A stretch of 61,816 nucleotides of DNA, taken from a virus. Its lineage: Duplodnaviria > Heunggongvirae > Uroviricota > Caudoviricetes. This document shows, in pieces, positions 1,509 through 38,015 of the stretch (its first letter is position 1; each line of letters opens with the position of its first letter). The notes below the pieces were generated by a model. It had not been told where the DNA came from and made no database searches. It saw nothing but the letters and a program-made list of their open reading frames with translations. Location of the stretch: IMG/VR virus record IMGVR_UViG_2740892042_000003; one strand, written 5' to 3'. A program made the translations under genes and the position numbers.

Positions 1509-1748
1509 CTATTTCCTGCGTATGGCACGTAACTTCTTAATGTGTTCTGCCGTTTCGATCTCTTCTGCTATCCGATCTGCATCAGCTTTATTCACAGGTT
1601 CAAAGTCATGATTAAAGCGGAACATGCTGGCGATACATGTTCTGCCTTTTCGGATGTAGTGAACTTTGTTGTGGGTAGAACGCAGGATTCTGCAGGGAGT
1701 GCCGTGGTGGTCGACGTACCAGGTGTTAGGAAAAATGATTCTGAACAT
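1509..1748 (-). CDS. hypothetical early-left protein
   Basis: 79-aa ORF in the int-xis to exo interval, same strand as neighbours. Confidence 0.4.
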   Translation of the reverse strand: MFRIIFPNTWYVDHHGTPCRILRSTHNKVHYIRKGRTCIASMFRFNHDFEPVNKADADRIAEEIETAEHIKKLRAIRRK

Positions 1749-1795
1749 TTTTACACCTCAGTTGGACGATGTTGAAATTTACTGCTTTGAGGCCA

Positions 1796-2014
1796 TCACA
1801 GTCCCCATTGTTTGTTCTTAAGTTCGATCTCCTCCTGGCAACTTGCACAAGTCCGACAACCCTGAACAGCCAGGCGTCTTCGCTCATCTATCGGATCGCC
1901 ACATTCACAACAATGAGTTGCGGATACAGTCTGGTAGTTCAGACGACGCATTTTTATTGCTGTATTGCGCTGTAATTCTTCGATTTCTGATGCTGAATCA
2001 ATGATGTCTGCCAT
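1796..2014 (-). CDS. TraR/DksA-family C4 zinc-finger protein
   Basis: 72 aa with CxxC...CxxC (CCECGDPI...CRTCASC) arrangement typical of phage TraR-like proteins. Confidence 0.7.
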   Translation of the reverse strand: MADIIDSASEIEELQRNTAIKMRRLNYQTVSATHCCECGDPIDERRRLAVQGCRTCASCQEEIELKNKQWGL

Positions 2015-2112
2015 CTTTCATTAATCCCTGAATTGTTGGTTAATACGCTTGAGGGTGAATGCGAACAATAAAAAAGGAGCCTGTAGCTCCCTGATGATTT
2101 TGCTTTTCATGT

Positions 2113-2394
2113 TCACCGTTCCTTAAAGACGCCGTTTAACATGCCGATCGCCAGGCTTAAATGAGTCGGTGTGAATCCCATCAGCGTTACCGTTTCGCGG
2201 TGCTTCTTCAGTACGCTACGGCAAATGTCATCGACGTTTTTATCCGGAAACTGCTGTCTGGCTTTTTTGATTTCAGAATTAGCCTGACGGGCAATACTGC
2301 GAAGGGCGTTTTCTTGCTGAGGTGTCATTGAACAAGTCCCATGTCGGCAAGCATAAGCACACAGAATATGAAGCCCGCTGCCAGAAAAATGCAT
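2113..2394 (-). CDS. hypothetical protein (lambda orf61-like position)
   Basis: ORF in the lambda orf61 position; likely true start at internal MTPQQ. Confidence 0.4.
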   Translation of the reverse strand: MHFSGSGLHILCAYACRHGTCSMTPQQENALRSIARQANSEIKKARQQFPDKNVDDICRSVLKKHRETVTLMGFTPTHLSLAIGMLNGVFKER

Positions 2395-2404
2395 TCAGTG
2401 GTTG

Positions 2405-2596
2405 TCATACCTGGTCTCTCTCATCTGCTTCTGCTTTCGCCACCATCATTTCCAGCTTTTGTGAAAGGGATGTGGCTAACGTATGAAACTCTTCGTCTGT
2501 TTCTGCTGGTATTGGCACAAACCTGACTCCAATTTGAGCAAGGCTATGTGCCATCTCAATGCTCGTTCTTAACTCAACAGGAGATGCTTTGTGCAT
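2405..2596 (-). CDS. lambda orf63-like protein
   Basis: 63-aa ORF, sequence recalled as lambda orf63 ([23 protein letters not shown]...). Confidence 0.5.
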   Translation of the reverse strand: MHKASPVELRTSIEMAHSLAQIGVRFVPIPAETDEEFHTLATSLSQKLEMMVAKAEADERDQV

Positions 2597-2757
2597 ACAG
2601 CCCCTCGTTTATTATTTATCTCCTCAGCCAGCCGCTGGGCTTTCAGTGGATTTTGGATAACAGAAAGGCCGGGAAATACCCAGCCTCGCTTTGTAACGGA
2701 GTAGACGAAAGTGATCGCACCTCCCCGGATATTATCGTGAGGATGCTTCATCGCCAT
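2569..2757 (-). CDS. lambda orf60a-like protein
   Basis: 62-aa [14 protein letters not shown]... immediately upstream of exo as in lambda. Confidence 0.5.
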
Positions 2758-3428
2758 TGCTCCCCAAATACAAAACCAATTTCAGCCAGTGCCTCGTCCA
2801 TTTTTTCGATGAACTCCGGCACCATCTCGTCAAAACTCGCCATGTAATTTTCATCCCGCTCAACCACGACATAATGCAGGCCTTCACGCTTCATTCGTGG
2901 GTCATAGTTTGCAAAGTACCAGGCATCTTTTCGCGTCACCCACATGCTGTACTGCACCTGGGCCATGTAAGCCGACTTTATGGCCTCGAAACCACCGAGC
3001 CGGAATTTCATGAAATCCCGGGAGGTAAACGGGCATTTCAGTTCAAGGCCGTTGCCGTCACTGCATAAACCATCGGGAGAGCAGGCGGTGCGCATACTTT
3101 CGTCGCGATAGATGATCGGGGATTCAGTAACATTCACGCCGGAAGTGAACTCAAAGAGGGCTCTGGCGTCGTTCTCGTACTGTTTTCCCCAGGCCAGCGC
3201 CTTAGCGTTAACTTCCGGAGCCACACCGGTGCAAACCTCGGCAAGCAGGGTGTGGAAGTAGGACATTTTCATGTCAGGCCATTTCTTTCCGGAGCGGGGT
3301 TTTGCTATCACATTGTGAACTTCTGAAGCGGTGATGACGCCGAGCCGTAATTTGTGCCACGCATCATCCCCCTGTTCGACAGCTCTCACGTCGATCCCGG
3401 TACGCTGCAGGATAATGTCCGGTGTCAT
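2748..3428 (-). CDS. exo: lambda exonuclease (Red alpha)
   Basis: 226 aa, near-identical to lambda Exo ([40 protein letters not shown]...). Confidence 0.95.
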
Positions 3429-4587: not shown

Positions 4588-4830
4588 TTAGTGATTCAGG
4601 CCGTTACCGCGTCCGTCGAGAAAAACTTCTACGAGCAAATCACGGGTATAAGTGCGCTCGATGCCGCGATGCAGATAAAGCCGTCCGCGTAAATTAGCTG
4701 ATGCAGTCCAGGTACCATCTTTGTGTTTGACCAGCATTCCTGGCATGACCGCACCTCGATTAACGGTCTGCGTTCCGTAATGTTGATGAACCATAAAAAA
4801 CTCCTGCCCGTAAGCTGGGCTGCTGAACAT
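4588..4830 (-). CDS. hypothetical protein in kil position
   Basis: 80-aa ORF directly downstream of gam on the same strand; identity not recognised. Confidence 0.4.
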
Positions 4831-11020: not shown

Positions 11021-12547
11021 ATGAAAAAAGCCATAGCATATATGCGATTTTCATCACCAGGTCAGATGTCTGGCGACTCATTAAACCGACAGAGAAGACT
11101 TATTGCTGAATGGTTAAAGGTAAATAGTGATTATTATCTTGATACCATAACATATGAAGATTTAGGATTAAGTGCATTCAAAGGAAAGCATGCACAATCA
11201 GGAGCTTTTTCGGAATTTTTAGATGCTATAGAGCATGGTTATATATTGCCAGGAACTACATTGCTAGTTGAAAGTCTGGACAGACTTTCAAGAGAAAAAG
11301 TCGGTGAAGCGATTGAGCGTCTGAAATTGATTTTGAATCACGGTATTGATGTTATAACTCTTTGCGATAATACAGTCTATAATATTGACTCTTTGAATGA
11401 TCCATATTCATTAATAAAAGCCATACTTATAGCACAAAGGGCAAATGAAGAAAGCGAGATAAAGTCAAGTCGGGTTAAATTATCATGGAAGAAAAAACGG
11501 CAGGATGCACTGGAGTCAGGCACGATTATGACGGCGTCTTGTCCGAGATGGCTCTCATTGGATGACAAAAGAACAGCTTTTATTCCAGACCCCGACAGGG
11601 TGAAAACGATTGAGCTAATTTTTAAACTCAGGATGGAAAGGCGATCATTGAATGCAATAGCCAAGTATTTAAATGATCATGCTGTAAAAAATTTCTCAGG
11701 AAAAGAAAGTGCATGGGGGCCTTCTGTAATTGAAAAATTATTAGCGAATAAAGCTCTGATAGGTATATGCGTACCTTCATATCGTGCAAGAGGTAAAGGA
11801 ATAAGTGAAATCGCTGGCTATTATCCCAGAGTCATATCAGATGATTTGTTTTACGCTGTGCAGGAAATTCGGTTGGCACCTTTTGGTATTAGCAATAGTA
11901 GCAAAAATCCTATGTTGATAAATCTACTTCGAACAGTTATGAAGTGCGAGGCTTGTGGTAATACCATGATTGTTCATGCGGTATCTGGAAGTTTGCATGG
12001 CTATTATGTTTGTCCGATGAGAAGACTGCATCGATGTGGCAGGCCATCAATAAAGAGAGATTTGGTTGATTATAATATCATTAATGAGTTGCTTTTTAAT
12101 TGTAGTAAAATCCAACCAGTTGAAAACAAGAAAGATGCTAATGAAACTTTAGAGTTGAAAATTATTGAGCTCCATATGAAAATTAATAATTTAATTGCTG
12201 CATTATCTGTTGCGCCTGAAGTTACCGCTATAGCAGAAAAAATCAGAGTATTAGATAAGGAATTACGAAGGGCTTCTGTATCATTAAAAACTTTGAAGAG
12301 TAAAGCGGTGAGCTCACTTGGTGATTTTCATGCTATTGACTTAACCAGTAAAAATGGGCGAGAGCTATGTCGTACACTTGCCTATAAAACATTCGAAAAA
12401 ATCATAATCAATACAGATAATAAAACCTGTGATATCTATTTTATGAATGGCATTGTTTTTAAACACTATCCTTTAATGAAAACAATATCCGCCCAGCAGG
12501 CGATAAGTACTCTCAAATATATGGTTGATGGTGAGGTTTATTTTTGA
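11021..12547 (+). CDS. ybcK: large serine recombinase YbcK
   Basis: 508 aa; N-terminal resolvase-type catalytic domain (AYMRFSSPGQ), large C-terminal domain with Cys cluster; matches DLP12 YbcK. Confidence 0.9.
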   Translation: MKKAIAYMRFSSPGQMSGDSLNRQRRLIAEWLKVNSDYYLDTITYEDLGLSAFKGKHAQSGAFSEFLDAIEHGYILPGTTLLVESLDRLSREKVGEAIERLKLILNHGIDVITLCDNTVYNIDSLNDPYSLIKAILIAQRANEESEIKSSRVKLSWKKKRQDALESGTIMTASCPRWLSLDDKRTAFIPDPDRVKTIELIFKLRMERRSLNAIAKYLNDHAVKNFSGKESAWGPSVIEKLLANKALIGICVPSYRARGKGISEIAGYYPRVISDDLFYAVQEIRLAPFGISNSSKNPMLINLLRTVMKCEACGNTMIVHAVSGSLHGYYVCPMRRLHRCGRPSIKRDLVDYNIINELLFNCSKIQPVENKKDANETLELKIIELHMKINNLIAALSVAPEVTAIAEKIRVLDKELRRASVSLKTLKSKAVSSLGDFHAIDLTSKNGRELCRTLAYKTFEKIIINTDNKTCDIYFMNGIVFKHYPLMKTISAQQAISTLKYMVDGEVYF

Positions 12548-12658
12548 GTAATAATCACTTTTTCAACCGTGCTATAGTAAGAAAGTTAGGTAAGTACAAT
12601 AAAATTATCTATCCTGAACGAAGCGTCCTGAGCTATGGTTTTACTATAGGGACTGCCA

Positions 12659-12982
12659 ATGGATGCTGGCGTTCTCGTTCTAGCAGTTCAACAATCCCCA
12701 ATCACAAAACAATTCACTGATAACGAACTTTGCACACTCGCCTGGTTATGGCGAGCAGGGAATGTGATGTTAATTGCCTACCAGAACGTTACTCATCTTC
12801 TTCAGGATGCGGAGCATGGTGAAGCTGGTCACTTCACTTCCATCGAGCAAGAATATCCCCAGATACTCAACAGAGCGCGAGCAATCCTCGTCCGAGAAAC
12901 GGCACATGTAAAACTTCAGCCGTGGCAGGATGATAAGTGGAGTCGAGTATTGCCGCATTTACCTCAGAATCTGTTTCAATAA
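12659..12982 (+). CDS. hypothetical protein
   Basis: 107-aa ORF, no recognised domain. Confidence 0.35.
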   Translation: MDAGVLVLAVQQSPITKQFTDNELCTLAWLWRAGNVMLIAYQNVTHLLQDAEHGEAGHFTSIEQEYPQILNRARAILVRETAHVKLQPWQDDKWSRVLPHLPQNLFQ

Positions 12983-13156
12983 AGGCGCTAGTTAGTAAGG
13001 CTTCCGTCATTCTGCGATGACGGAAGTGCGGGCTGCGTACGGGAGAGCAATTGCATGAATAATATAAATATTCCGCTCACTCCATATAGCGATTTCTGAT
13101 ACAAACTTATCTATTGTGGTAAAATTATAGAAACAAACTTATAGCGTACTAACCAT

Positions 13157-13939
13157 ATGGACAATATTAATAAACACGGGCTCTCAAGAAGAATACCTGA
13201 GACAATAAAACGTCAGATAAGGCAAAGGTGCGGCTTTGGCTGTGTAATTTGTGGATTTGGATTTTATGATTATGAGCATTTTAAACCTGACTTCGTTGAT
13301 GCCAAAGTACATGATCCGAATGGAATGACACTTCTTTGCTCCCAATGCAATCAAAAAAGAGCTCGTGGTAGACTTTCAGCACAGACAGTGGAAATAGCTG
13401 ACAGAAATCCCAAGTGCTTACAGGCTGGTTTTGCAAATGAAATGTTTGATTTTCATAATGAGCCTATAACAGTAAAATTTGCAGGAGTGACGTTTCATAA
13501 CTGTCAAAATTTGATTGTAGTCAACGAACAACCCATTCTTTCTGTGAAACCTTCACCCATACCACATGGACCGATGCTTTTATCAGGAATTTTCTGTAAT
13601 TCTATTGGTAAGGAGACTTTACTGATAGATGAAAATGAATGGAAAGCTAAATCAGACAATTGGGATGTGGAGTGTACCGGCCCGCGTATAACAATACGAC
13701 GTGGGCCAGGAGAGTTTGCCCTCGTTCTAAAAATGGAACCTCCAACAGGATTGATTGTTGAGCGTCTTGATATGTTGTATGAAGGGGTCAGGATGAAAGG
13801 AGATAAAGATCTGCTGGAAGTTTCGATTAATGGAGGTCCCTTGCACAGATGGCAATCATGCTCAATGTCAAATTGCCATACAGGGCTTGCGATTCAGGGC
13901 GGTATTAGAGCTGCTAATGATCCTTTGTATTGCGCCTAA
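13157..13939 (+). CDS. HNH endonuclease-domain protein with uncharacterised C-terminal domain
   Basis: N-terminus CGFGCVICGF...YEHFKPDF...HDPNGMTLLCSQCN fits the HNH CxxC...H...N...CxxC pattern; 260 aa. Confidence 0.65.
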   Translation: MDNINKHGLSRRIPETIKRQIRQRCGFGCVICGFGFYDYEHFKPDFVDAKVHDPNGMTLLCSQCNQKRARGRLSAQTVEIADRNPKCLQAGFANEMFDFHNEPITVKFAGVTFHNCQNLIVVNEQPILSVKPSPIPHGPMLLSGIFCNSIGKETLLIDENEWKAKSDNWDVECTGPRITIRRGPGEFALVLKMEPPTGLIVERLDMLYEGVRMKGDKDLLEVSINGGPLHRWQSCSMSNCHTGLAIQGGIRAANDPLYCA

Positions 13940-23470: not shown

Positions 23471-26451
<2,981 letters not shown>

Positions 26452-26528
26452 AACCCTTGCTGCGTCTGGAATGTCGTTTTCCATGCTTTTGATGACCGTT
26501 CATCACCCTTCCAGTTTTTCGCGGTTTT

Positions 26529-26581
26529 GTGTATTGCAATGTGTATTGCAAATTGGCGATCGGGATGGGTGTGTATTGCAA
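26529..26581 (+). repeat. integrase arm-type repeats (left end of island)
   Basis: gtgtattgcaa at 26529, 26541, 26571, directly upstream of island int. Confidence 0.55.
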
Positions 26582-26599
26582 ATCTCTTGAGGGCTTTTA

Positions 26600-27841
26600 A
26601 TGGCTATTGAAAACAAACTCAGTGACAAACTGTTAAAGAGTCTTGTCGGAAAACGGCAGGACAAACAAAAAACAATAGCGGATGGGCGCGGGTTGTCTGT
26701 GCGTGTAAGCATGGTTGGGGGGATCAGCTTTGTTTTTTACTATCGTCTTGGTGGCAGGGAATCCCCTCCGGTATGGCTTACACTTGGTCGCTATCCTGAC
26801 ATGTCTCTTGCAACGGCCAGGCGCATGCGTGATCAGTGCCGTGAATGGCTGGCTGAAAATCTGGACCCCCGCAGGCAAATAAAACTTGCTGCCGAAAAAA
26901 CTATGCAACCAGTGACCGTAAGGGATGCGCTGTTTTACTGGTACGACAATCACGCCACAACAGCCAGAAAAGAGCATGAATATTTAATAAAACGATTTGA
27001 AAAGCATATCTTCCCCTATATCGGTGATATGGCTATAGAACAGTGCAAATTACACACATGGCTTACCGTCTTTGACAGGATCAAAAAAAATGCGCCTGTT
27101 ATGTCTGGTGCAATTTTTCTTGATATCAAACAGGCGTTGCGTTTTTGTCGCGTCAGGCAATACATCGCGTGCGATCCCTTTGGAGATATTAACGTAAGTT
27201 ATGTCGGGCGCTCATCCGGTATAAGGGATCGCGTTCTTAATATCAATGAAACCGCTGATGTATGGTCTTATGCTTACGGTAATAATTTGCTAACTCTGTC
27301 ATCAATATATAACCGAAGAATAATGGTTATCTGCCTGGTGTTTGGTTGCCGACAGCAGGAGGCGAGGCTATCCACCTGGGACGAATGGGATTTAAAAAAC
27401 TGGGTATGGACAGTCCCAAAAGAGCACAGCAAAAACAAGGAGGCTATAGTAAGGCCTGTTCCTGACGGAATAAAACAATGGATCGTTAATCTTTACGCAG
27501 AAACAAAAAATCGCGGTTATGTTGTCGGTTGTGCTTTGCAAAGGGCGACAATAACAGGGGCTGCAAACAGAATATGCAGGCGTCTTGGTCATGATACTAA
27601 TGGCTTGTGGTGCATACATGATTTCAGGCGCACATTTTCCACTACGCTTAATGATATGGGGGCGGATCCTTATATTGTCGAACTTCTTTTAGGTCATAAA
27701 GTGAAAGGGGTTGCTGGTGTTTACAATAAAAGCAGGCATATAAAGAAAAAACTTGAGGTGCTTAATATGTGGGTTAATTACCTTAATACGATAGCAGGAT
27801 TTAACAACAACGTTATCGAGCTTAATAAAGAGGTGGTGTGA
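26600..27841 (+). CDS. tyrosine integrase (P4/PICI-type)
   Basis: 413 aa; C-terminal HDFRRTFSTTL...LLGHK...GVAGVY catalytic region. Confidence 0.9.
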   Translation: MAIENKLSDKLLKSLVGKRQDKQKTIADGRGLSVRVSMVGGISFVFYYRLGGRESPPVWLTLGRYPDMSLATARRMRDQCREWLAENLDPRRQIKLAAEKTMQPVTVRDALFYWYDNHATTARKEHEYLIKRFEKHIFPYIGDMAIEQCKLHTWLTVFDRIKKNAPVMSGAIFLDIKQALRFCRVRQYIACDPFGDINVSYVGRSSGIRDRVLNINETADVWSYAYGNNLLTLSSIYNRRIMVICLVFGCRQQEARLSTWDEWDLKNWVWTVPKEHSKNKEAIVRPVPDGIKQWIVNLYAETKNRGYVVGCALQRATITGAANRICRRLGHDTNGLWCIHDFRRTFSTTLNDMGADPYIVELLLGHKVKGVAGVYNKSRHIKKKLEVLNMWVNYLNTIAGFNNNVIELNKEVV

Positions 27842-27842
27842 T

Positions 27843-28100
27843 ATGGCAATTTATTCTCTTGTTGATGAAAACGATTTGCGCACAATGAAGGACATTGATC
27901 GGTTCATTCGTGAAAAAGAGTGCATAGCACTTACCACGCTGGCAAACTCAACACGCTGGAAAATGGAGCAGGCAGGTAAATTCCCGCGACGTATCAAGAT
28001 CGGTGAACGTGCTGCAGGGTATCGACTTTCAGAGGTTCAGGCATGGATCCGTGGTGAGTGGCATCCTGGATGGAAACCTGGAAAAACAAAACAGCAATAA
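27843..28100 (+). CDS. AlpA-family regulator/excisionase
   Basis: 85 aa; directly after int; AlpA-like HTH region. Confidence 0.7.
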   Translation: MAIYSLVDENDLRTMKDIDRFIREKECIALTTLANSTRWKMEQAGKFPRRIKIGERAAGYRLSEVQAWIRGEWHPGWKPGKTKQQ

Positions 28101-28156
28101 CCAGTAAATAATGCCCCTCATCACGAGGGGTTTTTTGTCTATAAGGTAAAAACGCG

Positions 28157-28735
28157 ATGAATAAAAATATTGCCGTGACGGGCAAGGGGTACGCTCGTCC
28201 AGTGAAAAAATTCTGCGATATTCGTGATCTCGTCGTTCTGCGCTTTGATAGTGTGAACGTTCGTGTGGTGTATCTGAACGGCGATCCGTGGTTTGTTGCA
28301 AAAGATGTTTGTGCTGCGCTGGAACTAACCAATTCGCGTACGGCGTTGCAGATGCTTGATGATGATGAAAAGGGAGTAAATTTAACTTACACCCCAGGAG
28401 GAAATCAGAATATGAGAATTATCTCTGAGTCAGGTTTCTACAAACTAATAGCCCGCAGCCGCAAAGCAACGACGCCTGGCACATTTGCTCATCGTTTCAG
28501 TAACTGGGTATTCAGAAATGTGATACCAGGTATCAGAAAAACGGGGACTTATGGTATCCCGTGGGGTGCATTACAGGATTTTTCCCGCCGTAAAGAGCAA
28601 TATCAAATAAGTGCCAGCGAGAAGGGGAGGGAGCTACAGGCATGTAAGCGCAAAAAGCGTGAGCTGGAGGAAGAAGAAAAAACGCTGATACGTGAATATC
28701 AGCCTGAGTTTTACTTTGGTAACCGCATTCAGTGA
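28157..28735 (+). CDS. Bro-N domain antirepressor-like protein
   Basis: VVYLNGDPWFVAKDVCAALEL... Bro-N signature. Confidence 0.7.
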   Translation: MNKNIAVTGKGYARPVKKFCDIRDLVVLRFDSVNVRVVYLNGDPWFVAKDVCAALELTNSRTALQMLDDDEKGVNLTYTPGGNQNMRIISESGFYKLIARSRKATTPGTFAHRFSNWVFRNVIPGIRKTGTYGIPWGALQDFSRRKEQYQISASEKGRELQACKRKKRELEEEEKTLIREYQPEFYFGNRIQ

Positions 28736-29068
28736 CAAAACAAAGGCGACCGCAAAAGGGTCGCCAGTGGGAACAAGGGAAAACAAAAGCATCACCAACA
28801 ATGCCACATTTGCGGCTGGTGGGCAATGTGATCAGTCAGATTTGGTTCGTTCCAAGGTTTGCAACGAGAGCTTTTTCCTGTGCTCTTTAAGGAATTTCTC
28901 AAGAGCAAACGAACAAGGTGCGAATCTTTCTGATTCATGTTCATGCGCTATATTTTTGCGTCGCCTCTTACGAGTTGGTGATGGTGTTTTGGTTGATTCT
29001 GTGTCGCTCATGGTGCTGTCCTGTAAAGCAATGCGCCTGCGTTCCTCAAACTATGGCGCTGATATTGG

Positions 29069-29374
29069 CTATTCATGCTCTTTGACCTTGCGTCGCTGGA
29101 GTTCTTCACGCGCGACGGTGACGAGTTGCCCGATCTCCTCGGCTGCTTTGATGCCGATTTGTTCGACCTTAGCCAGGGCATCCAGTGACGACACAAGGGG
29201 ATTTTCTCCGCTGCCTTCTGCTTGGCGGCGGGCTATTTCTCCGCGCATGGCGGTTACGATAAATCCGGCATTGCTTTCACCGTCCAGCTTAACGGATTCC
29301 ATCCCTTGCATAACATCTAGTGGGACTCTGACAGTTGTCAGTTGTGATTTTGCGTTTTTGTTAGCCGTTGCCAT
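29069..29374 (-). CDS. putative ribbon-helix-helix repressor
   Basis: 101 aa; N-terminal QLTTVRVPLDVMQGME beta-strand/helix pattern; divergent from promoter/operator at 29436-29473. Confidence 0.45.
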   Translation of the reverse strand: MATANKNAKSQLTTVRVPLDVMQGMESVKLDGESNAGFIVTAMRGEIARRQAEGSGENPLVSSLDALAKVEQIGIKAAEEIGQLVTVAREELQRRKVKEHE

Positions 29375-29435
29375 TTCTGAAACTCCTAATCATCGGTGTG
29401 TTTCAGTATACACAAAAAAAGAAATACAAAAAGCC

Positions 29436-29473
29436 TTGACGTGTGTTTCATGCGCTCATAACATGAAACACAC
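29436..29473 (+). promoter_or_regulatory. sigma70-like promoter overlapped by a 12-bp perfect inverted-repeat operator
   Basis: ttgacg-17 nt-taacat; inverted repeat gtgtgtttcatg (29441-29452) / catgaaacacac (29462-29473). Confidence 0.5.
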
Positions 29474-29564
29474 CGAAAGGATTGTTGAAATACAAAGAGC
29501 AACGCCCCGCAGTGCTGGGAACACATACGGGGCGTCTAACCAACAACGTAAACTAGGAGCCGTT

Positions 29565-29762
29565 ATGGTTGCTGTAAATCATATACCACACCTTGTACAC
29601 ACACAAACGGCCTTTGTGTGGCGTTTTCTGGCACTGAGTGCCGGAGAATCTCAAATCATCCACGTAACCGCCTGGACGGAACGCGAAGCGCGTAGCCGTT
29701 GCCCGTCCGGTTGTGTTGCTGTATTCGCTGCAAAAATCCGCCAGGGAGTGAGTCATGCTTAA
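29565..29762 (+). CDS. small Icd-like protein (host cell-division inhibitor family)
   Basis: 65 aa MVAVNHIPHLVHTQTAFVWRF..., AGGAG RBS; pattern of P4-type Icd-like proteins. Confidence 0.5.
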   Translation: MVAVNHIPHLVHTQTAFVWRFLALSAGESQIIHVTAWTEREARSRCPSGCVAVFAAKIRQGVSHA

Positions 29763-29940
29763 AACCTTCCGTGTATTTGCCCGAGCTGTTAACCCAATAG
29801 GCCACACAATTGGTATCGCTCAGAATGTGAAGGCTGTTAATGTTCAGACGGCTATTGCTGCGGTGAGAAGCGAATCATCAGAATATGGCTTATCACAAGT
29901 CATTATTTCAGCAGTGTATGAATTAAAAGAGGTGCATTAA
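29755..29940 (+). CDS. hypothetical protein
   Basis: 61-aa ORF in island early operon. Confidence 0.3.
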   Translation: MLKTFRVFARAVNPIGHTIGIAQNVKAVNVQTAIAAVRSESSEYGLSQVIISAVYELKEVH

Positions 29941-30131
29941 TGCAGGAAATTACATTACACGAAGCCGCTGAACGTGCGCACCAGACAGAAATTATTTGCC
30001 GCCTTCTTGAGGTATACCCGAACAAAATTACAGATGCTGATATATCCGCACTGGCGAGCCTACTGGCGCGTCTTTCGGGAAGTGTCGCTAGTTTTTTGAT
30101 TGAGGAAGAAAGTAAGCTGGTGGGGGATTAA
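29940..30131 (+). CDS. hypothetical protein
   Basis: 63-aa ORF, tightly packed in operon. Confidence 0.3.
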   Translation: MQEITLHEAAERAHQTEIICRLLEVYPNKITDADISALASLLARLSGSVASFLIEEESKLVGD

Positions 30132-30353
30132 ATGAATACAGAACGGGAAGTCTTTTTTAAATTGTTAGCATGTGCAGAAAGTTCATTAACTTTAAATAAT
30201 TCAGCAAAAGCAATATTAAATATGTGGCTTGATTGCATAAATGACAATGAAGATGCAAATATTGCTTATGGCCTGTTGTCACTTATTGATGAATCAGCAG
30301 AAAAACTCAATGACGCAATAAATAGTGCCCTGCTATCAAATAAGTCGAGTTAA
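30132..30353 (+). CDS. hypothetical protein
   Basis: 73-aa ORF, AT-rich codon usage unlike neighbours. Confidence 0.3.
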   Translation: MNTEREVFFKLLACAESSLTLNNSAKAILNMWLDCINDNEDANIAYGLLSLIDESAEKLNDAINSALLSNKSS

Positions 30354-30370
30354 GTCGAGGAATAAATAAT

Positions 30371-30670
30371 ATGGAAATGAAAAATTCTGGCTTTATTGCT
30401 AGCGGCCCCGCTCGACCTGAATTTATGAACGGCGATATTTACCGCGATAAATACGGCGGCACGGTAACGATTAAAGGCGTGGCAGAACGGCGCATCACTT
30501 ACCGCCGTGAGGGGTATAGCTATGACTGCGTGATGCCTGTTTATCAGTTCCGGCGTGATTTTTCCCTGGTATATGCCGCACCCCGCAGTAAGCCCATCAG
30601 CAGGGAAAAAGCGTGGGGAAATATCCAGAAAATGAAAACCATGATTAACGGATTCAGAGGTAAAAAATGA
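30371..30670 (+). CDS. hypothetical protein
   Basis: 99-aa ORF overlapping primase start. Confidence 0.4.
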   Translation: MEMKNSGFIASGPARPEFMNGDIYRDKYGGTVTIKGVAERRITYRREGYSYDCVMPVYQFRRDFSLVYAAPRSKPISREKAWGNIQKMKTMINGFRGKK

Positions 30671-32418
30671 AACTGGCACCGAACTTAAAAAAACAGCCAC
30701 GCGACAGACTGACAGAGATAATCATCTTTGCAGGTAGTGATGCGTGGAGCCATGCGAAAGAGTGGCAGGAATGGGCGGGTAAACATATTGCCGCCGACGA
30801 TGTGCCGCCTGTCGTGTTGGCTGATGAGCAACTGAAAAACATCACCGATTACCGGATCATTGATGAAGATCGTCAGTGTGTGCGTGTTTACCGCGCAGGA
30901 CATATCACAGAGCACAGCATGACGCAGATTGTTACGTTACTGGCTGTGGCTGGAGTGAAGACCGTACACGAATACGCGGGGATTACTGACACCAGCCCAG
31001 TGGATTTATCCGACCAGTTGCCGCGACTCAAAGAGGAATGCGAGCGTGGGGAAAGCCTGGTGCTTAATCTTCCGACGAAGCAAAAGGCGCAACTTTCACA
31101 GATGGCAGACAGTGAGCGCGCGCAGCTGCTTGCCGAGCGCTTTGATGGCGTTTGTGTGCATCCGGAAAGTGAAATCGTTCACGTATGGCGCGGCGGGGTA
31201 TGGTGTCCGATCAGCACAATGGAGCTGAGCCGCGAAATGGTGGCGATCTATTCAGAGCACAGGGCCACTTTCAGCAAACGCGTGATCAATAACGCCGTTG
31301 AAGCGTTAAAAGTTATTGCCGAACCAATGGGCGAGCCGTCCGGCGATTTGCTGCCGTTCGCCAATGGTGCGCTTGACCTGAAAACGGGGGAATTTTCCCC
31401 GCACACGCCGGAGAACTGGATCACCACGCACAACGGCATTGAGTACACGCCACCAGCACCAGGGGAGAACATCCGCGATAACGCGCCAAACTTTCATAAA
31501 TGGCTTGAGCACGCAGCCGGAAAAGACCCGCGCAAGATGATGCGTATATGTGCCGCGCTGTACATGATTATGGCGAACCGGTACGACTGGCAGATGTTCA
31601 TTGAGGCCACCGGAGACGGGGGAAGCGGTAAGAGTACATTTACCCATATTGCCACCCTGCTTGCTGGCAAACAGAACACCGTAAGCGCAGAGATGACATC
31701 ACTCGATGATGCAGGAGGGCGCGCGCAGGTTGTCGGGAGTCGTCTTATCGTCCTTGCCGATCAGCCGAAATATACGGGGGAAGGCACGGGCATCAAGAAA
31801 ATCACGGGAGGCGATCCCGTTGAAATCAACCCGAAATATGAGAAGCGATTCACGACGATAATAAGGGCGGTGGTACTGGCAACCAATAACGACCCGATGA
31901 TCTTTACCGAACGGGCCGGAGGTGTGTCACGCCGTCGGGTGATTTTCCGGTTCGACAACATTGTAAGGGAGGACGAAAAAGACAAGGAATTACCGGAAAA
32001 GATAGCGGCAGAAATCCCCGTAATTATCCGCCGCTTGCTGGCTAATTTTGCTGACCCTGAAAAGGCACGGGCTTTATTACTGGAACAGCGTGACGGTGAT
32101 GAAGCTCTGGCAATAAAGCAGCAAACGGATCCGGTTGTTGAGCTTTGCGCGGCGCTGGAGTTTCTGGAGGAAGCTCGTGGGCTAATGATGGGCGGTGGTG
32201 GTGACACCGTGAAGTACACGACCAGAAACAGCCTTTACCGTGTCTATATGGCCTTCATGGCATATACAGGAAAGGGGAAATGTTTGAGCGTGAATGAGTT
32301 CGGAAAGGCTATGAGGTCAGCGGCGAAAGTTTACGGATATGAATATATTACGCGAAAAGTTAAGGGAGTCACGCAGACCAACGCAACGACTACTGATGAT
32401 TGCGATGCGTTTTTATAA
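30667..32418 (+). CDS. primase-helicase (P4 alpha/PICI Pri-Rep-like)
   Basis: 583 aa; Walker A GDGGSGKST and D5/P4-type helicase region. Confidence 0.85.
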   Translation: MKLAPNLKKQPRDRLTEIIIFAGSDAWSHAKEWQEWAGKHIAADDVPPVVLADEQLKNITDYRIIDEDRQCVRVYRAGHITEHSMTQIVTLLAVAGVKTVHEYAGITDTSPVDLSDQLPRLKEECERGESLVLNLPTKQKAQLSQMADSERAQLLAERFDGVCVHPESEIVHVWRGGVWCPISTMELSREMVAIYSEHRATFSKRVINNAVEALKVIAEPMGEPSGDLLPFANGALDLKTGEFSPHTPENWITTHNGIEYTPPAPGENIRDNAPNFHKWLEHAAGKDPRKMMRICAALYMIMANRYDWQMFIEATGDGGSGKSTFTHIATLLAGKQNTVSAEMTSLDDAGGRAQVVGSRLIVLADQPKYTGEGTGIKKITGGDPVEINPKYEKRFTTIIRAVVLATNNDPMIFTERAGGVSRRRVIFRFDNIVREDEKDKELPEKIAAEIPVIIRRLLANFADPEKARALLLEQRDGDEALAIKQQTDPVVELCAALEFLEEARGLMMGGGGDTVKYTTRNSLYRVYMAFMAYTGKGKCLSVNEFGKAMRSAAKVYGYEYITRKVKGVTQTNATTTDDCDAFL

Positions 32419-32434
32419 AAAATGGCAATGGTTA

Positions 32435-32670
32435 TCTACCTTGTCTACCTGACTGAAATAAAATACTTTTATTTCAATGTATTAATGCAGGTAGATAACT
32501 ATTTTTCACTGTCTACCTGTTATCTACCTTATCTACCCATTTTTGTAGACAGGTAAGGAGACGGGTAGAGATGAGGTAGACAGCTATTTGGGGCTGTCTA
32601 CCTCCCTGAAACCCGCGCCATTACTGGCCTGATAACTAATCAAGTAGACAAGGTAGACAAGGTGGTGGTG
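32435..32670. repeat. island replication origin iterons
   Basis: more than 12 copies of gtctacc / ggtagac in both orientations immediately 3' of the primase gene. Confidence 0.65.
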
Positions 32671-32707
32671 CACAAAAAACTTTTTAAACGAGGGGGTAAA
32701 AATAAAA

Positions 32708-32965
32708 ATGCACACATCAGGAAAACTGAACAAACATATAAAGCCACATTACCGCGCCCTTGATATGGCTGAACACTGGCTAAGGGTGGCGATTAAGGCA
32801 ATAGACCGCAACGCCGGGGAAGGATACGCGAAAGCACATCCCGAACTGATAAGCGCATTCATGACAACGGCGGCTGCAAACTTTGCCACGCTGACCGAAC
32901 GGGAGATTGCCGAAGCGGAACAGGTGACAACCATCAATGTTAAAACCGGAGAGCAGACAGCATGA
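32708..32965 (+). CDS. hypothetical protein
   Basis: 85-aa ORF overlapping ssb start. Confidence 0.35.
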   Translation: MHTSGKLNKHIKPHYRALDMAEHWLRVAIKAIDRNAGEGYAKAHPELISAFMTTAAANFATLTEREIAEAEQVTTINVKTGEQTA

Positions 32966-33384
32966 CAGCACAGATAGCGGCTTACGGGCGGCTGGTGGCT
33001 GACCCGCAGTTAAAGACCACCAGCAAAGGGACACAAATGGCGATGGCGAGTATGGCGGTTCCCCTGCCGTGCAGCCAGGCAGATGACGGAACGGCGACGA
33101 TGTGGTTATCCGTCCTGGCGTTTGGCAGACAGGCCGACGCACTGGCAAAACACCACAAAGGCGAACTGGTGAGCGTGGCGGGTAACATGCAGGTAAGCCA
33201 GTGGACAGGCCAGAACGGCGAAACGCGGCGGGGCTGGCAGGTTATCGCAGACAGCGTAATCAGTGCGCGAACGGCGCGACCGGGCGGCAAAAAAGGCCAG
33301 CAGGGGCAGGCCACTGACGCACTGAACAGGGCAAAACAACAGTCGGGGAATGATGATCCGTACGGCGATAATATACCGTTTTAA
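32962..33384 (+). CDS. ssb: single-stranded DNA-binding protein
   Basis: 140 aa; OB-fold N-terminus, Gly/Gln-rich linker and C-terminal ...DDPYGDNIPF tail. Confidence 0.8.
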   Translation: MTAQIAAYGRLVADPQLKTTSKGTQMAMASMAVPLPCSQADDGTATMWLSVLAFGRQADALAKHHKGELVSVAGNMQVSQWTGQNGETRRGWQVIADSVISARTARPGGKKGQQGQATDALNRAKQQSGNDDPYGDNIPF

Positions 33385-33595
33385 ATTCTGCAAACAAAAA
33401 GATGCCGGAAAAAAATAGATTTTCCGGCATGCTACATAAATCCCGACCAAAGGAAGTAAATACATTAACACGAATTATCAGCACTGAAGTTGTTACGGCA
33501 TATTTTATACAACATTGCACTTGGTTGCATGTATTCGCATAGCAGACATCGGTAATAGAATATATTCACAATTATTTGTAATGAATGTAAAGAGG

Positions 33596-34643
33596 ATGAG
33601 TATGGTTGATTTATATTCGCCTACACAGCTTGTGCAGGTGGCTAATGCTGAAGATGTGCAAAAAAAAATTAAATGCGTTGTTTACCAGTTTGTTTTTCAC
33701 TCGCTCGGTAATGTTTGAATCGAGAGACATTATTCTTGATACGATCGACGATCCAAATATCCCGATCGCGGCGTTTTGCTCTCCTATGGTGGGCAGTAAA
33801 GTTTCACGAGATGAGGGATACGAATCAAAAACAATTCGTCCAGGTTATATGAAGCCGAAAAGCAGCATTGATCCAAATAAGTTAGCTGTGCGCCCTGCTG
33901 GTGTGTCACCTGAGCAATACAATGCTTTTGGGGCGCGTAATATTAAAGTTAAACAGGCGATTGTAAATCAGGCTAAAGCTATTCGTGCACGTATTGAATG
34001 GCTTGCTGTTCAGGCAATCACAACGGGGAAAAATATCATTGAGGGCGATGGTATTGAACGTTATGAGCTGGACTGGAATATAAAACCACAAAATATCATC
34101 ACTCAGTCTGGCGGTACTGAGTGGTCAGGTAAGGATAAAGAAACTTTTGATCCAAATGATGATATTGAGAGCTACGCAGAATTTAGTGAGGGCGTCACTA
34201 ATATCATCATTATGGGTGGTAATGTATGGAAGAAATACCGTTCATTCAGAGCGATAAAAGAGGCTTTGGATACCCGTCGTGGTTCTAATTCCGAACTGGA
34301 AACGGCCCTTAAAGACCTTGGTGATTCGGTGAGTTTTAAAGGGTATATGGGCGATGTTGCGATTGTTGTTTACAGCGGGCGTTATACCGACGAGGACGGA
34401 ACAGAAAAACATTTCCTTGATCCTGATTTGATGGTGCTTGGCAATACGGCTCTTCAGGGGATTGTCGCCTATGGCGGTATTCAGGATCCGGAGCTAATCC
34501 GAATGGGGCTGACTAAAGCCGAACTTGCACCGAAAAACTATATTGTGCCTGGTGATCCGGCTATTGAATATGTGCAGACACATTCAGCACCACAGCCAAT
34601 ACCGGCCCGCATCAATCGTTTTGTTACCGTTCGCATTGGCTAA
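33596..34643 (+). CDS. gpE-like major capsid protein, frameshifted at an A9 tract
   Basis: AAGAGG RBS and ATG at 33596; MSMVDLYSPTQLVQVANAEDVQKK aligns with lambda E N-terminus, then homology continues in +1 frame after A9 run 33660-33668 (LNALFTSLFFTRS... to end); about 40 percent similar to prophage E. Confidence 0.75.
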
Positions 34644-34652
34644 GGGGGAGCA

Positions 34653-34994
34653 ATGGCTACTCATTACACTGAACTCATGGCTGGCACTGAAGCACTGGTG
34701 ACTACGCTGGGGATATTTTCAGCTAATAAAGGGGTAATTCCTGCATTTACGCCACTGATGCAGGAAGATGCAACAGGTGCACTGGTGGTATGGGATGGTT
34801 CGAGCGTAGGTAAAGCGGTTTATGTTTCCGCTGTACAAATCGACACAGCGAAAAAAACACAGGCACAGGTTTATAAGACAGGTGTTTTAAATGTTGATGC
34901 TCTGAACTGGCCTGAGTCTGTAAAAGAACTGTCGGCAAAGGTTGCCGCGTTTGTTGGCTCAGGTATTTCTGTTCAGCCGCTGGCTCGTGTGTAA
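34653..34994 (+). CDS. gpD-like head decoration protein
   Basis: 113 aa; TPLMQEDATGALVVWDGSS aligns with lambda [21 protein letters not shown]. Confidence 0.7.
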   Translation: MATHYTELMAGTEALVTTLGIFSANKGVIPAFTPLMQEDATGALVVWDGSSVGKAVYVSAVQIDTAKKTQAQVYKTGVLNVDALNWPESVKELSAKVAAFVGSGISVQPLARV

Positions 34995-35005
34995 AGGGGG
35001 ATACA

Positions 35006-35389
35006 ATGCAGAATCATTACAATGACCTTAAGCCAATTGCCGAAATGATGTATCCGGATCCAGCAGTAGAGGAATTAAAGGCTATTGCTGACAAAATGCG
35101 TTTAAGTGAACGCCTTGTTGATATGAATCAGGTGATGGAACTTACTACCCTTAGCCGTCGCACATTGCTAAACCTTGAGGCTCGCGGAGAGTTCCCCGAA
35201 CGCGTACAGGTTACGGAAGGGCGTAAGGCCTGGTATTTAAGTGAAGTGATCGACTGGATAAACAATATTCCTCGATCTTCTGAATATTGCCGCGTACCTG
35301 TCCCAAAAAAGCCAGATGCGGCGCTATGCCTCAAGATTGAGCGTGTACGTCGCAATGCACGGGATGGTCGCTATAAGTTGATTGGTTGA
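35006..35389 (+). CDS. AlpA-family transcriptional regulator
   Basis: ELTTLSRRTLLNLEARGEFPERVQVTEGRKAWYLSEVIDWI AlpA-type HTH. Confidence 0.6.
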   Translation: MQNHYNDLKPIAEMMYPDPAVEELKAIADKMRLSERLVDMNQVMELTTLSRRTLLNLEARGEFPERVQVTEGRKAWYLSEVIDWINNIPRSSEYCRVPVPKKPDAALCLKIERVRRNARDGRYKLIG

Positions 35390-35445
35390 TGAAATTAGGG
35401 CCCGTTCTGGCTGGCGGGTCCTTTCCGGCGATCCGGTAGGCTACG

Positions 35446-35479
35446 GGGCGGCGACCTCGCGGGTTTTCGCTATTTATGA
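35446..35479. other. island cos site with lambda-identical cosN
   Basis: gggcggcgacctcgcgggttttcgctatttatga, preceded by cosQ-like cgggtcctttccggcgatccggtagg. Confidence 0.65.
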
Positions 35480-35590
35480 GCCTTTTTCGGGTGCTGGTGG
35501 TGGTTTTGTTGCTCGCTCTATCTCTATGAATAAAAAGGAAAAGATAAAGCCAATACACCAACCTGAAACATTACTTAAGTGGGGATATTG

Positions 35591-36133
35591 ATGAAATCGC
35601 ACCTGATGAACAAAAAAAACATGGCGCAAAGCTGCCGTGTAAGTGCGACAGCGTTCGACAAGTGGGGAGTGACTCCCGTTGAACGTAAAGGCCGCGAGGC
35701 GTTTTATGATGTTGCCAGCGTAATAGACAATCGGGTTAGCAATGCAATTAACCAGATTACAGACGACAAAGGCGAGATTGATGATGATGAACTCCTACGA
35801 GTCAGGATCAGATTGCTGACAGCACAGGCAGAGGCGCAGGAGCTTAAAAACGAGCGCGAACGCGGCGACGTTATTGATACAGCGTTTTGTATATACGTGC
35901 TTTCAAAATTGGCGAGTCAGATTTCTTCAATCATGGACAGCCTGCCGCTTGCCATGACAAGGAAGTTTCCCGACATGAAGCCGTCTATGCTGGATGGACT
36001 GAAAAAAGAAGTTATCAGAGCCTGTAACGCATGCGCAAAACTTGACGAAAACATACCGCTGATGCTGTCCGATTATCTGATGGAAACTGCCGGAAACGTA
36101 CCGGATAAGTTGCAGCCGAATAAAGATAAGTAA
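35591..36133 (+). CDS. Nu1-like terminase small subunit
   Basis: aligns with lambda Nu1 (NKKQ...; ELKN...VIDTAFCIYVLSKLASQISSIMDSLPLAMTRKFPDM vs ELKNAKESAEVVETAFCTFVLSRIAREISSILDGIPLSVQRRFPEL). Confidence 0.7.
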   Translation: MKSHLMNKKNMAQSCRVSATAFDKWGVTPVERKGREAFYDVASVIDNRVSNAINQITDDKGEIDDDELLRVRIRLLTAQAEAQELKNERERGDVIDTAFCIYVLSKLASQISSIMDSLPLAMTRKFPDMKPSMLDGLKKEVIRACNACAKLDENIPLMLSDYLMETAGNVPDKLQPNKDK

Positions 36134-36144
36134 CGTAGTACGCT

Positions 36145-36426
36145 ATGACTGAATCCGAAATACTGCGATTAATCCGCCGTGCTTGTGGAATCAGCAAGCA
36201 GCATGACGAACAGGCCACGCAGCCGGACAGCGTGACCGCAGATAATTATGTGCGTGTAGTGGCTGAGGTGATGCGCCGTGACGGTATTGAGCTTAACGGC
36301 GTGGATATGCGCAACATACGAACAAGAGTCCTTGAGTTGCTGGCATATCGTCGCCGTTCTCAACAACGGAGGGAGAGCGCGAAAAATACTTACCAGTGGA
36401 AGAAGCCGGAACGATTGCGGCGGTAA
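36145..36426 (+). CDS. hypothetical Arg-rich protein
   Basis: 93-aa ORF directly after island terS. Confidence 0.35.
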   Translation: MTESEILRLIRRACGISKQHDEQATQPDSVTADNYVRVVAEVMRRDGIELNGVDMRNIRTRVLELLAYRRRSQQRRESAKNTYQWKKPERLRR

Positions 36427-36680
36427 CTTGCTGATATTCCCGATAACGCAAAATTGCGCTGGCTGACTTGTTGCATTGCAAAAAGTTAAGCAGGAAGGCA
36501 CGGCCTGTAAGATGGGATGCAGTAAGTAGTTCAAGGCTACCTTGTGCTGGCACGCACAGTTAAGCCGTCGGTGCTGGATATCCCCCACTGGGGGAAAAGC
36601 TGGCTACATCCCTCACATCTGAGGACTGATAACGCGACATTGCGCTGGCTGGCAAAGTGCAAAATTGCACGATGGCCTAA

Positions 36681-36817
36681 CCCATTGATTATTTCGAAAA
36701 CCTGCAATGCAGGAAATCGGGGAAGTAAGCCTAAGCTATTGATTGTTTCGAAAACCCCCATTGGGGGATGTCGGGAAAGTAAGACTAACCCATTGATTCT
36801 TCCACAATCCTCAATTT
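36681..36817 (+). repeat. three direct repeats near island right end (candidate TerS/cosB-like binding sites)
   Basis: cccattgattatttcgaaaacc, gctattgattgtttcgaaaacc, cccattgattcttccacaatcc, each near a G5/C5 hairpin. Confidence 0.45.
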
Positions 36818-37140
36818 GAGGAGGCCGGAACGTCTACATAGCTGCATCGCCGTAATGATGATTCAGCCCACCAGTCAAATCAGCACAGCAACGACAGAAT
36901 AGCCCGACACAGAAAAACCACGAATATGGGGTTTTTGTTATGACATGGTCATGATGACCACTCATACAAAACAGGTAAAGCCCACCAGCCTGATTAAAGG
37001 TTAACCGGAAAAAAGCCAGGTATCCAATCTCGATATGGGGATCCCTATATCGACATTAACGCCCACTAAAACTGTGCATATATGCATAGAAAAAGCATCC
37101 ACCAGCTTTATGACGGATGCCGCTCATCTTATAAATAATC

Positions 37141-37162
37141 GTGTATTGCAGTGTGTATTGCG
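37141..37162 (+). repeat. integrase arm-type repeats (right end of island)
   Basis: gtgtattgca gtgtgtattgcg, same motif as left-arm repeats. Confidence 0.55.
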
Positions 37163-37235
37163 ACTCCTTTAAACGATAGGTCTGAGCATTCGTAATGTAC
37201 TGTTTTTAAATTTTATTTTTTCCTGTCTTTTCATA

Positions 37236-38015
37236 AAGGCGATGTATGCCGCCACCATTGAGAGTGAGCTGGATACGCAGTCAGCGATGGATTTTATTCT
37301 GGGCGCGAACAGTAAGGAGCAGCGGGACAAGCTGACCGGCTGGATTGGTGAAATTGCCGCGTATTACGCCGCAGCACCGGTCCGTCTGGGAGGCGCAAAA
37401 GTGCCGCACCTGATGCCGGGGGACTCACTGAACCTGCAGACGGCTCAGGACACGGATAACGGCTACTCCGTGTTTGAGCAGTCACTGCTGCGGTATATCG
37501 CTGCCGGACTGGGTGTCTCGTATGAGCAGCTTTCCCGGAATTACGCCCAGATGAGCTACTCCACGGCACGGGCCAGCGCGAACGAGTCGTGGGCGCACTT
37601 TATGGGGCGGCGAAAATTCGTCGCATCCCGTCAGGCGAGCCAGATGTTTCTGTGCTGGCTGGAAGAGGCCATCGCCCGCCGCGTGGTGACGTTACCTTCA
37701 AAAGCGCGCTTCAGTTTTCAGGAAGCCCGCAGTGCCTGGGGGAACTGCGACTGGATAGGCTCCGGTCGTATGGCCATCGATGGTCTGAAAGAAGTTCAGG
37801 AAGCGGTGATGCTGATAGAAGCCGGGCTGAGTACCTACGAGAAAGAGTGTGCAAAACGCGGCGATGACTATCAGGAAATTTTTGCCCAGCAGGTCCGTGA
37901 AACGATGGAGCGTCGTGCAGCCGGTCTTAAACCACCCGCCTGGGCGGCTGCGGCATTTGAATCCGGGCTGCGACAATCAACAGAGGAGGAGAAGAGTGAC
38001 AGCAGAGCTGCGTAA
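37236..38015 (+). pseudogene. B: portal protein B, C-terminal 257 codons
   Basis: MYAATIESELDTQSAMDF... matches lambda gpB residues 277-533; 276 + 257 = 533. Confidence 0.85.

Follow-up and report, generated by a model that had tools for sequence, protein, structure and literature searches.

The question raised by this locus is why a satellite island should carry a major capsid gene whose reading frame is interrupted, close to its start, at a run of nine adenines. The locus lies in a 61,816-nt stretch of viral (Caudoviricetes) DNA, referred to here in its entirety as the window. The original prediction, made from the letters of the sequence, had offered three options for the run: a sequencing error, a recent inactivating mutation, or expression through transcriptional slippage or ribosomal frameshifting, which would make production of the capsid protein stochastic or regulated. 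We followed up these options by comparing the gene, the run and the surrounding island with their relatives in public genomes and assemblies.

The capsid gene and its reading frames

In the window, the frameshifted island gene for a lambda-E-like major capsid protein (33602-34643, plus strand) measures 1042 nt, as against 1041 nt (346 aa) when intact. The homopolymer at 33660-33668 (plus strand) consists of exactly nine A residues (A9); A8 is the wild-type state in relatives, and the run is the site of the +1 insertion. From the ATG at 33596 the frame encodes MSMVDLYSPTQLVQVANAEDVQKK IKCVVYQFVFHSLGNV and ends at the TGA at 33716-33718 after 40 sense codons, whereas the +1 frame past the run reads ...KKLNALFTSLFFTRSVMFESRD... 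and stays open until the TAA at 34641-34643. The window genome consequently has no uninterrupted capsid ORF, the A9 run shifting the frame into the stop at 33716-33718. Removal of one A yields a single continuous ORF of 346 aa counted from the ATG at 33602, as had been expected of an A8 tract, and a protein identical to this repaired capsid (WP_000228106.1) is encoded on at least 1000 public contigs.

The assignment of the gene to the lambda E type was borne out by two comparisons. The A8-repaired protein matched the Pfam family Phage_cap_E (PF03864) with 142 bits against a cut-off of 22.9, over residues 14-345 of 348, and aligned end to end with lambda gpE (PDB 7VI9; E=8.7e-78, residues 7-347 against 4-340), the aligned part taking in the N-terminal arm, within which the frameshift site falls. 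The homology therefore continues across the A run in the +1 frame without a gap, as originally proposed. Its best match among solved structures was PDB 3BQW (E=1.1e-121), whose alignment also crosses the shift site; this entry was deposited under the title 'Putative capsid protein of prophage', and its source we take to be E. coli CFT073. Unlike lambda gpE, the window gene has an interrupted ORF and belongs to a satellite that encodes neither protease nor portal nor large terminase.

The positions and sequences of the A9 run, of the ATG at 33596, of the AAGAGG preceding it and of both frames are confirmed. It is the choice of start codon that we would revise. The Shine-Dalgarno-like AAGAGG (33590-33595, plus strand), which is kept in 7/7 aligned capsid alleles, had been taken as the ribosome binding site of the ATG at 33596; the motif is present, but its spacing is 0 nt from that ATG and 6 nt from the ATG at 33602. 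The latter, located 6 nt 3' of the former, is the start chosen by PGAP in intact homologues. Because AAGAGG touches the ATG at 33596 with no spacer and PGAP starts at 33602, we consider the ATG at 33602 the likelier, more plausible initiation codon. Counted from it, the upstream ORF fragment (33602-33718, plus strand) comprises 22 authentic capsid codons, 16 out-of-frame codons and the TGA, corresponding to a 38-aa peptide. The stop of this fragment shares bases with an ATG of the capsid frame (ATGTTTGA, 33711-33718), and from that ATG the downstream capsid frame (33711-34643, plus strand) would give an N-truncated product of 310 aa.

The island and its insertion site

The capsid gene belongs to an island of ~10.8 kb (26392-37248, plus strand). 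Imperfect 13-bp cores mark its two ends, AAGGCGATTTATG on the left (26392-26404) and AAGGCGATGTATG on the right (37236-37248). The island splits the portal gene of its helper prophage into a 5' part (25570-26404, plus strand) and a 3' part (37236-38015), and in-silico excision at the 13-bp cores restored a portal ORF of 533 aa. The helper is a lambdoid prophage integrated at icd and is 99.9% identical to that of strain 582, in which the portal gene is intact and the site is empty.

A tyrosine integrase of 413 aa (26600-27841, plus strand) occupies the left end of the island and is followed by an AlpA-family HTH protein, a Bro-N protein, several small ORFs, a DUF4222 protein, a primase/replicase with the Pfam domains D5_N and DUF5906 (30667-32418, plus strand) and iteron-like repeats. 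The remainder consists of an SSB, the capsid E homologue, an intact head decoration protein homologous to lambda D (34653-34994, plus strand; PF02924), a second AlpA-family regulator (35006-35389, plus strand; PF05930), a 180-aa Nu1-like small-terminase or Rpp-like gene (35591-36133, plus strand; PF07471), hereafter the rpp-like gene, and one small ORF. The island therefore shows the features of Gram-negative PICIs: a size within 10-20 kb, an integrase at the left, alpA, a primase followed by a likely origin, unidirectional genes and homologues of phage late genes. A close likeness is to EcCICFT073, in which a capsid (c1499) and decoration (c1500) homologue pair is likewise found in a ~10-kb int/alpA/primase island (PMC6092414); the window copy has a +1 frameshift, and its island is inserted not at a chromosomal site but in the portal gene of a prophage.

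With helper-embedded PICIs (HE-PICIs) such as Eco567.11capE, the island shares a position inside a lambdoid late gene, co-orientation with it, size and gene order, as well as the restoration of the late gene upon excision (PMC10111431). It also shares the doubled TGTATTGC motif, here at 26529-26549 and 37141-37161, that is, 131 nt downstream and ~85-90 nt upstream of the att cores, in agreement with HE-PICIs, in which the copies are placed at about 81 bp (upstream) and about 132 bp (downstream) from the attP centre. This motif and its spacing have been reported as unique to HE-PICIs (PMC10111431). The target in the window is the portal gene (the lambda B cognate), whereas Eco567.11capE uses the capsid gene; three confirmed B:Phage_portal_2 sites and a putative fourth are known among HE-PICIs, and the A run was not addressed in that study (PMC10111431). 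By its sequence features, the island is a helper-embedded EcCICFT073-type PICI, an already described kind of element.

Strain A0 34/86 (NZ_CP120567.1) has a near-identical island, likewise inserted in a portal gene; the prophage is again an icd-site one, related at about 93-98% identity. The A0 34/86 island differs from the window island at two positions in 10,885 nt, a SNP at 33524 and the indel in the A run.

Length of the A run and capsid alleles in relatives

Among E. coli complete genomes searched with an exact-flank 90-mer, 198 had A8, one (F404) had A9 and none had A7. With a pattern admitting A7 to A10, A8 was found in 36/36 matched IMG/VR viral contigs and in 18/18 matched metagenome contigs. 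Over these three collections, alleles other than A8, which would be out of frame (OFF), account for 1/253 exact-flank copies, and the A8 run is in frame in about 99.5% of copies. Comparison of the tract in related islands, which had been suggested as a check, hence returned nearly always A8 and one intact ORF. A scan for the tract in GTDB species-representative genomes gave no match. In 128/353 genomes, the capsid gene is represented by a diverged allele, ~91% identical, whose run is broken (CAAAAACAA) with the frame kept: it reads CAAAAACAAC in frame (GTA CAA AAA CAA CTA). The dN/dS values between capsid alleles were 0.02-0.14, which indicates that the gene is under strong purifying selection, normally functional and normally a single ORF, and that the lesion in the window is probably young.

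The A9 allele is not confined to the window. Strain F404 (NZ_OY754364.1) matches window positions 33500-34700 exactly, A9 included, and the PGAP annotation of this same allele is a 'frameshifted' pseudogene. Comparison over the whole window ruled out that F404 is the same genome: its island, in another prophage at the Qin locus, is a mosaic relative whose primase module is a different one and whose late region shows eight SNPs. F404 is thus most parsimoniously, as judged from these sequences, a second carrier of A9 of independent origin. The mosaic relative is also found in the Qin-locus prophage of N921, which we considered as a clonal A8 comparator for F404 and rejected, since ~11 SNPs and 3 homopolymer indels separate their islands and the comparison is not clean.

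Further A9 alleles were found in public assemblies. A9 is present in nine retrieved loci (L068-L070 and L081-L086, L083 being F404), which cover three or more capsid haplotypes and four or more island backgrounds, among them portal-embedded islands (two primase alleles) and a chromosomal PICI beside macB-cspD. In L068 and L069, the coding sequence is intact apart from the extra A. The exact 38-aa upstream peptide occurs on 3 contigs in Logan assemblies, and close 38-aa and 65-aa variants in the same cluster come from Logan, ENA and NCBI; a 332-aa product specific to A9 is present on 8 public contigs. The exact 310-aa truncated product is reported by gene callers on about 52-63 contigs, and it arises in more than one way: among ten loci with this product, A9 was found in none, A7 in seven, a nearby T run lengthened by one T in one and a nonsense mutation in two. 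The natural nonsense alleles (L071 and L078) carry CAA->TAA directly before the A run and TCG->TAG at codon 33, and their presence shows that the capsid homologue is also lost through ordinary point mutation. Taken together, A9 is a rare and recurrent allele, probably genuine, that inactivates or at least N-terminally truncates the PICI capsid homologue.

Real mutation or sequencing error

That the strain truly has A8, the extra A being a homopolymer miscall carried into the assembly, is the technical account of the locus. It is attractive in that the difference is a single base, located in the longest homopolymer of the island, and the remainder of the island matches an A8 island. Homopolymer artefacts also do occur in public data: two of the Logan contigs with A7 or A9 (L070 and L073) have several other homopolymer frameshifts and are clearly error-prone, and a second island copy in strain CREC-629 appears corrupted. 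Similar counts of variants at the A8 runs of the integrase and rpp-like genes (see below) would likewise be expected from a technical cause. Against this, over window positions 23645-44643 the Logan contig SRR3143578_145 agrees with the window at 100.000% identity (20,999/20,999 bases), A9 included. This contig was assembled independently and directly from the reads of that run (de Bruijn), possibly the same read set as underlies the assembly of the window, and a systematic homopolymer error at the level of the reads may therefore be shared by both. Noisy reads, however, would not yield a perfect assembly of 20,999 nt, and its identity to the window therefore makes both an assembler error and random read errors unlikely. 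The other Logan contigs with A9 were each found in 1-4 samples, and inactivation of the capsid gene by nonsense mutations outside homopolymers shows that real loss happens.

The rest of the window gives few signs of indel errors. Compared with strain 582, it has one other 1-nt indel over 26 kb, and tblastn of the window against the ORFs of relatives found 0 other mid-gene frameshifts, a search that is insensitive near N-termini and missed the capsid frameshift itself. On this evidence, the A9 run is probably real DNA. Reads supporting A8 would have overturned the original prediction of a frame change, and the read-derived contig of SRR3143578 instead shows A9; the option of a sequencing error is weakened by that contig and retains, as an artefact at the level of the reads, a small part of the probability, and we regard it as unlikely.

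The single indel relative to strain 582 is at window position 4795, which is intergenic, with A6 in the window and A5 in 582. It is located in the spacer between the AGGAG ribosome binding site and the ATG of a cell-division-inhibitor gene on the minus strand. CREC-629 (L002, NZ_CP024815.1) has tandem copies of a related island beside clpS (1620-3007 versus 12103-13494), one of which has four single-base deletions in G runs (three G4->G3, one G5->G4) across the capsid and decoration genes; these most likely arose as errors in assembling a repeated region.

Recoding and slippage

A programmed or regulated origin of the full-length protein would require the A run to be slippery, such that slippage of RNA polymerase or a +1 ribosomal frameshift gives a set fraction of full-length capsid. 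There are precedents for runs of this length. In many bacteria, slippage becomes significant when a run reaches nine A or nine T, and utilised or restorative cases include the A9 of Thermus dnaX, Shigella mxiE, IS elements and broken ORFs whose frame is regained in the mRNA (PMC1088944), with Citrobacter rodentium tssM as a further case (PMC4256274). The window resembles these in having a sense-strand A9 at the very position where the frame would be restored by changing the mRNA by 1 nt, and the otherwise intact coding sequences of the A9 alleles of L068 and L069 also count in favour of this reading. In the utilised cases, however, homologues share both the run and the split-ORF layout. Here, A8 keeps the frame in about 99.5% of exact-flank copies, and a major allele, that of the 128 genomes, interrupts the run.

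The local context of the run also lacks what a recoding site would be expected to have. The 106 nt 3' of A9 fold at -16.5 kcal/mol, no better than shuffled sequences (z=0.31), and we found neither such a downstream structure nor an upstream Shine-Dalgarno sequence combined with a slow codon; the 0-frame codon after the run is ATT, which is neither a stop nor rare. The shift needed is +1/-2 and not the classical -1. Classical -1 ribosomal frameshifting on A_AAA_AAA was considered separately and is ruled out, as a -1 shift misses the capsid frame.

At the level of transcription, the frame at A9 is restored by a 1-base deletion or a 2-base insertion in the sense-strand run. E. coli RNA polymerase, which generally prefers poly(T) for slippage, gave no detectable deletion slippage when poly(A) runs of up to A8 stood in the sense strand (PMC6260861), and the deletion that the window would need is one that it performs poorly on poly(A). 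Because restoration depends on such a deletion or on a two-base insertion, rescue of A9 by RNA polymerase slippage is expected to be small and would be incidental. Some functional expression may nonetheless result, A9 being at a slippage-prone length (PMC1088944). Programmed or regulated recoding is the least probable of the readings considered here, and the suggestion of stochastic or regulated capsid production is not supported by the comparison: A8 is the norm, the run is broken in the diverged allele, no stimulatory element was found in the window and other A8 runs of the island vary likewise.

Other A8 runs of the island

Two further A8 runs are present in the island, at 27083-27090 within the integrase gene (26600-27841) and at 35612-35619 within the rpp-like gene (35591-36133). 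Products of the kind expected from A7 or A9 at these runs were found in public assemblies. For the integrase, fragments of 174 aa, 198 aa and 246 aa are present on 2, at least 12 and 15 contigs, respectively, and for the rpp-like gene a 170-aa product is present on 33 contigs, some of which could reflect alternative start calls. The intact integrase, rpp-like and capsid proteins are each found on at least 1000 contigs, and as all these counts come from exact-sequence matching, the frequencies are rough. Truncated integrase and rpp-like products of the A7/A9 type occur in complete chromosomes too. The truncated products at these two runs therefore indicate, from sequence comparison, that homopolymer frameshifts are a general feature of the population of this element. 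The capsid A run is by the same token not exceptional, the A8 runs of the island varying by one base at a low rate.

These observations bear on the idea that the run is a contingency locus, in which A8 would be a selected hypermutable switch turning the capsid homologue on and off in populations. The existence of A7, A8 and A9 as natural alleles, in several backgrounds, is what such a switch would produce. The OFF alleles are rare, however, at the 1/253 copies given above, and the run is absent from the allele of 128/353 genomes. Runs of equal length in the integrase and rpp-like genes vary to a similar degree, and nonsense alleles are evidence that the function is also simply lost. An A8 tract is short for a phase-variation tract in bacteria, and the capsid run is neither conserved nor enriched in length variants relative to comparable tracts, as a phase-variable locus would be. 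We therefore consider a selected switch highly unlikely. Somewhat more speculative still is a broader version, in which A8 in the capsid gene, and perhaps the runs in the integrase and rpp-like genes, would act as a mutational or transcriptional ON/OFF dial, with A7 and A9 kept at low frequency and A9 partly rescued by slippage; we give it very little credence. If it were true, a subpopulation of the satellite would make little or no capsid homologue, which could alter interference with the helper phage or dependence on it.

A probable sporadic loss of frame in a conserved satellite gene

Of the three options, the recent inactivating mutation is the best supported, with A8 as the norm, A9 rare and recurrent and a read-derived assembly in agreement. 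We consider it quite likely that the A9 run is a sporadic, non-programmed and genuine A8->A9 insertion in a normally intact lambda-E-type capsid gene. Replication slippage in the lineage of the strain would have extended A8 to A9, creating a recent loss-of-frame allele. Translation from the ATG at 33602 would then end at the TGA at 33716-33718 after 38 codons, and full-length capsid could be made only through rare and adventitious slips of RNA polymerase or the ribosome, presumably at a low rate. Reinitiation at the ATG at 33711 would give the N-truncated 310-aa product; termination-reinitiation at this overlap is possibly a source of a capsid protein without the N-terminal arm.

Deletion of c1499 or c1500 in EcCICFT073 did not relieve interference with lambda (PMC6092414), and PICI capsid genes have been reported as not required for helper-assisted transfer (PMC10111431). 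These findings are in keeping with a loss of the capsid homologue that happens now and then and is tolerated. The capsid homologue of EcCICFT073-type PICIs is nevertheless strongly conserved (dN/dS below 0.15) and yet repeatedly lost in individual strains, and this combination of conservation and repeated loss sharpens the question of its role for the satellite.

By itself the finding is minor: it adds a further frameshifted allele to those of an accessory satellite gene, and the same allele is already labelled a pseudogene by NCBI in F404. The element, its embedded configuration and, as a concept, 9A frameshift alleles have all been described. The wider point is that relatives should be consulted before a frameshift at a 9A run is put down to recoding; in the present case, 250-plus of them settle the question.

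Repeats and other features of the island

A promoter scan identified one weak promoter-like site, at 33534-33561, and a hairpin at 33402-33430 is terminator-like on the minus strand only; neither has a bearing on the interpretation of the frameshift. Iteron-like direct repeats, GTTATCTACCTTGTCTACC and AGGTAGATAACT...CTGTCTACCT, are located directly 3' of the primase gene, at 32427-32603. They are at the reported position of PICI origins and represent a probable candidate ori. In addition, three tandem 54-nt repeats are present 3' of the last ORF of the island, at 36675-36836. These are 61-80% identical to the first copy, and each carries a short palindrome, e.g., CCTGCAATGCAGG. Potentially, this repeat array could be a candidate packaging (cos) region or a region bound by the Rpp-like protein.
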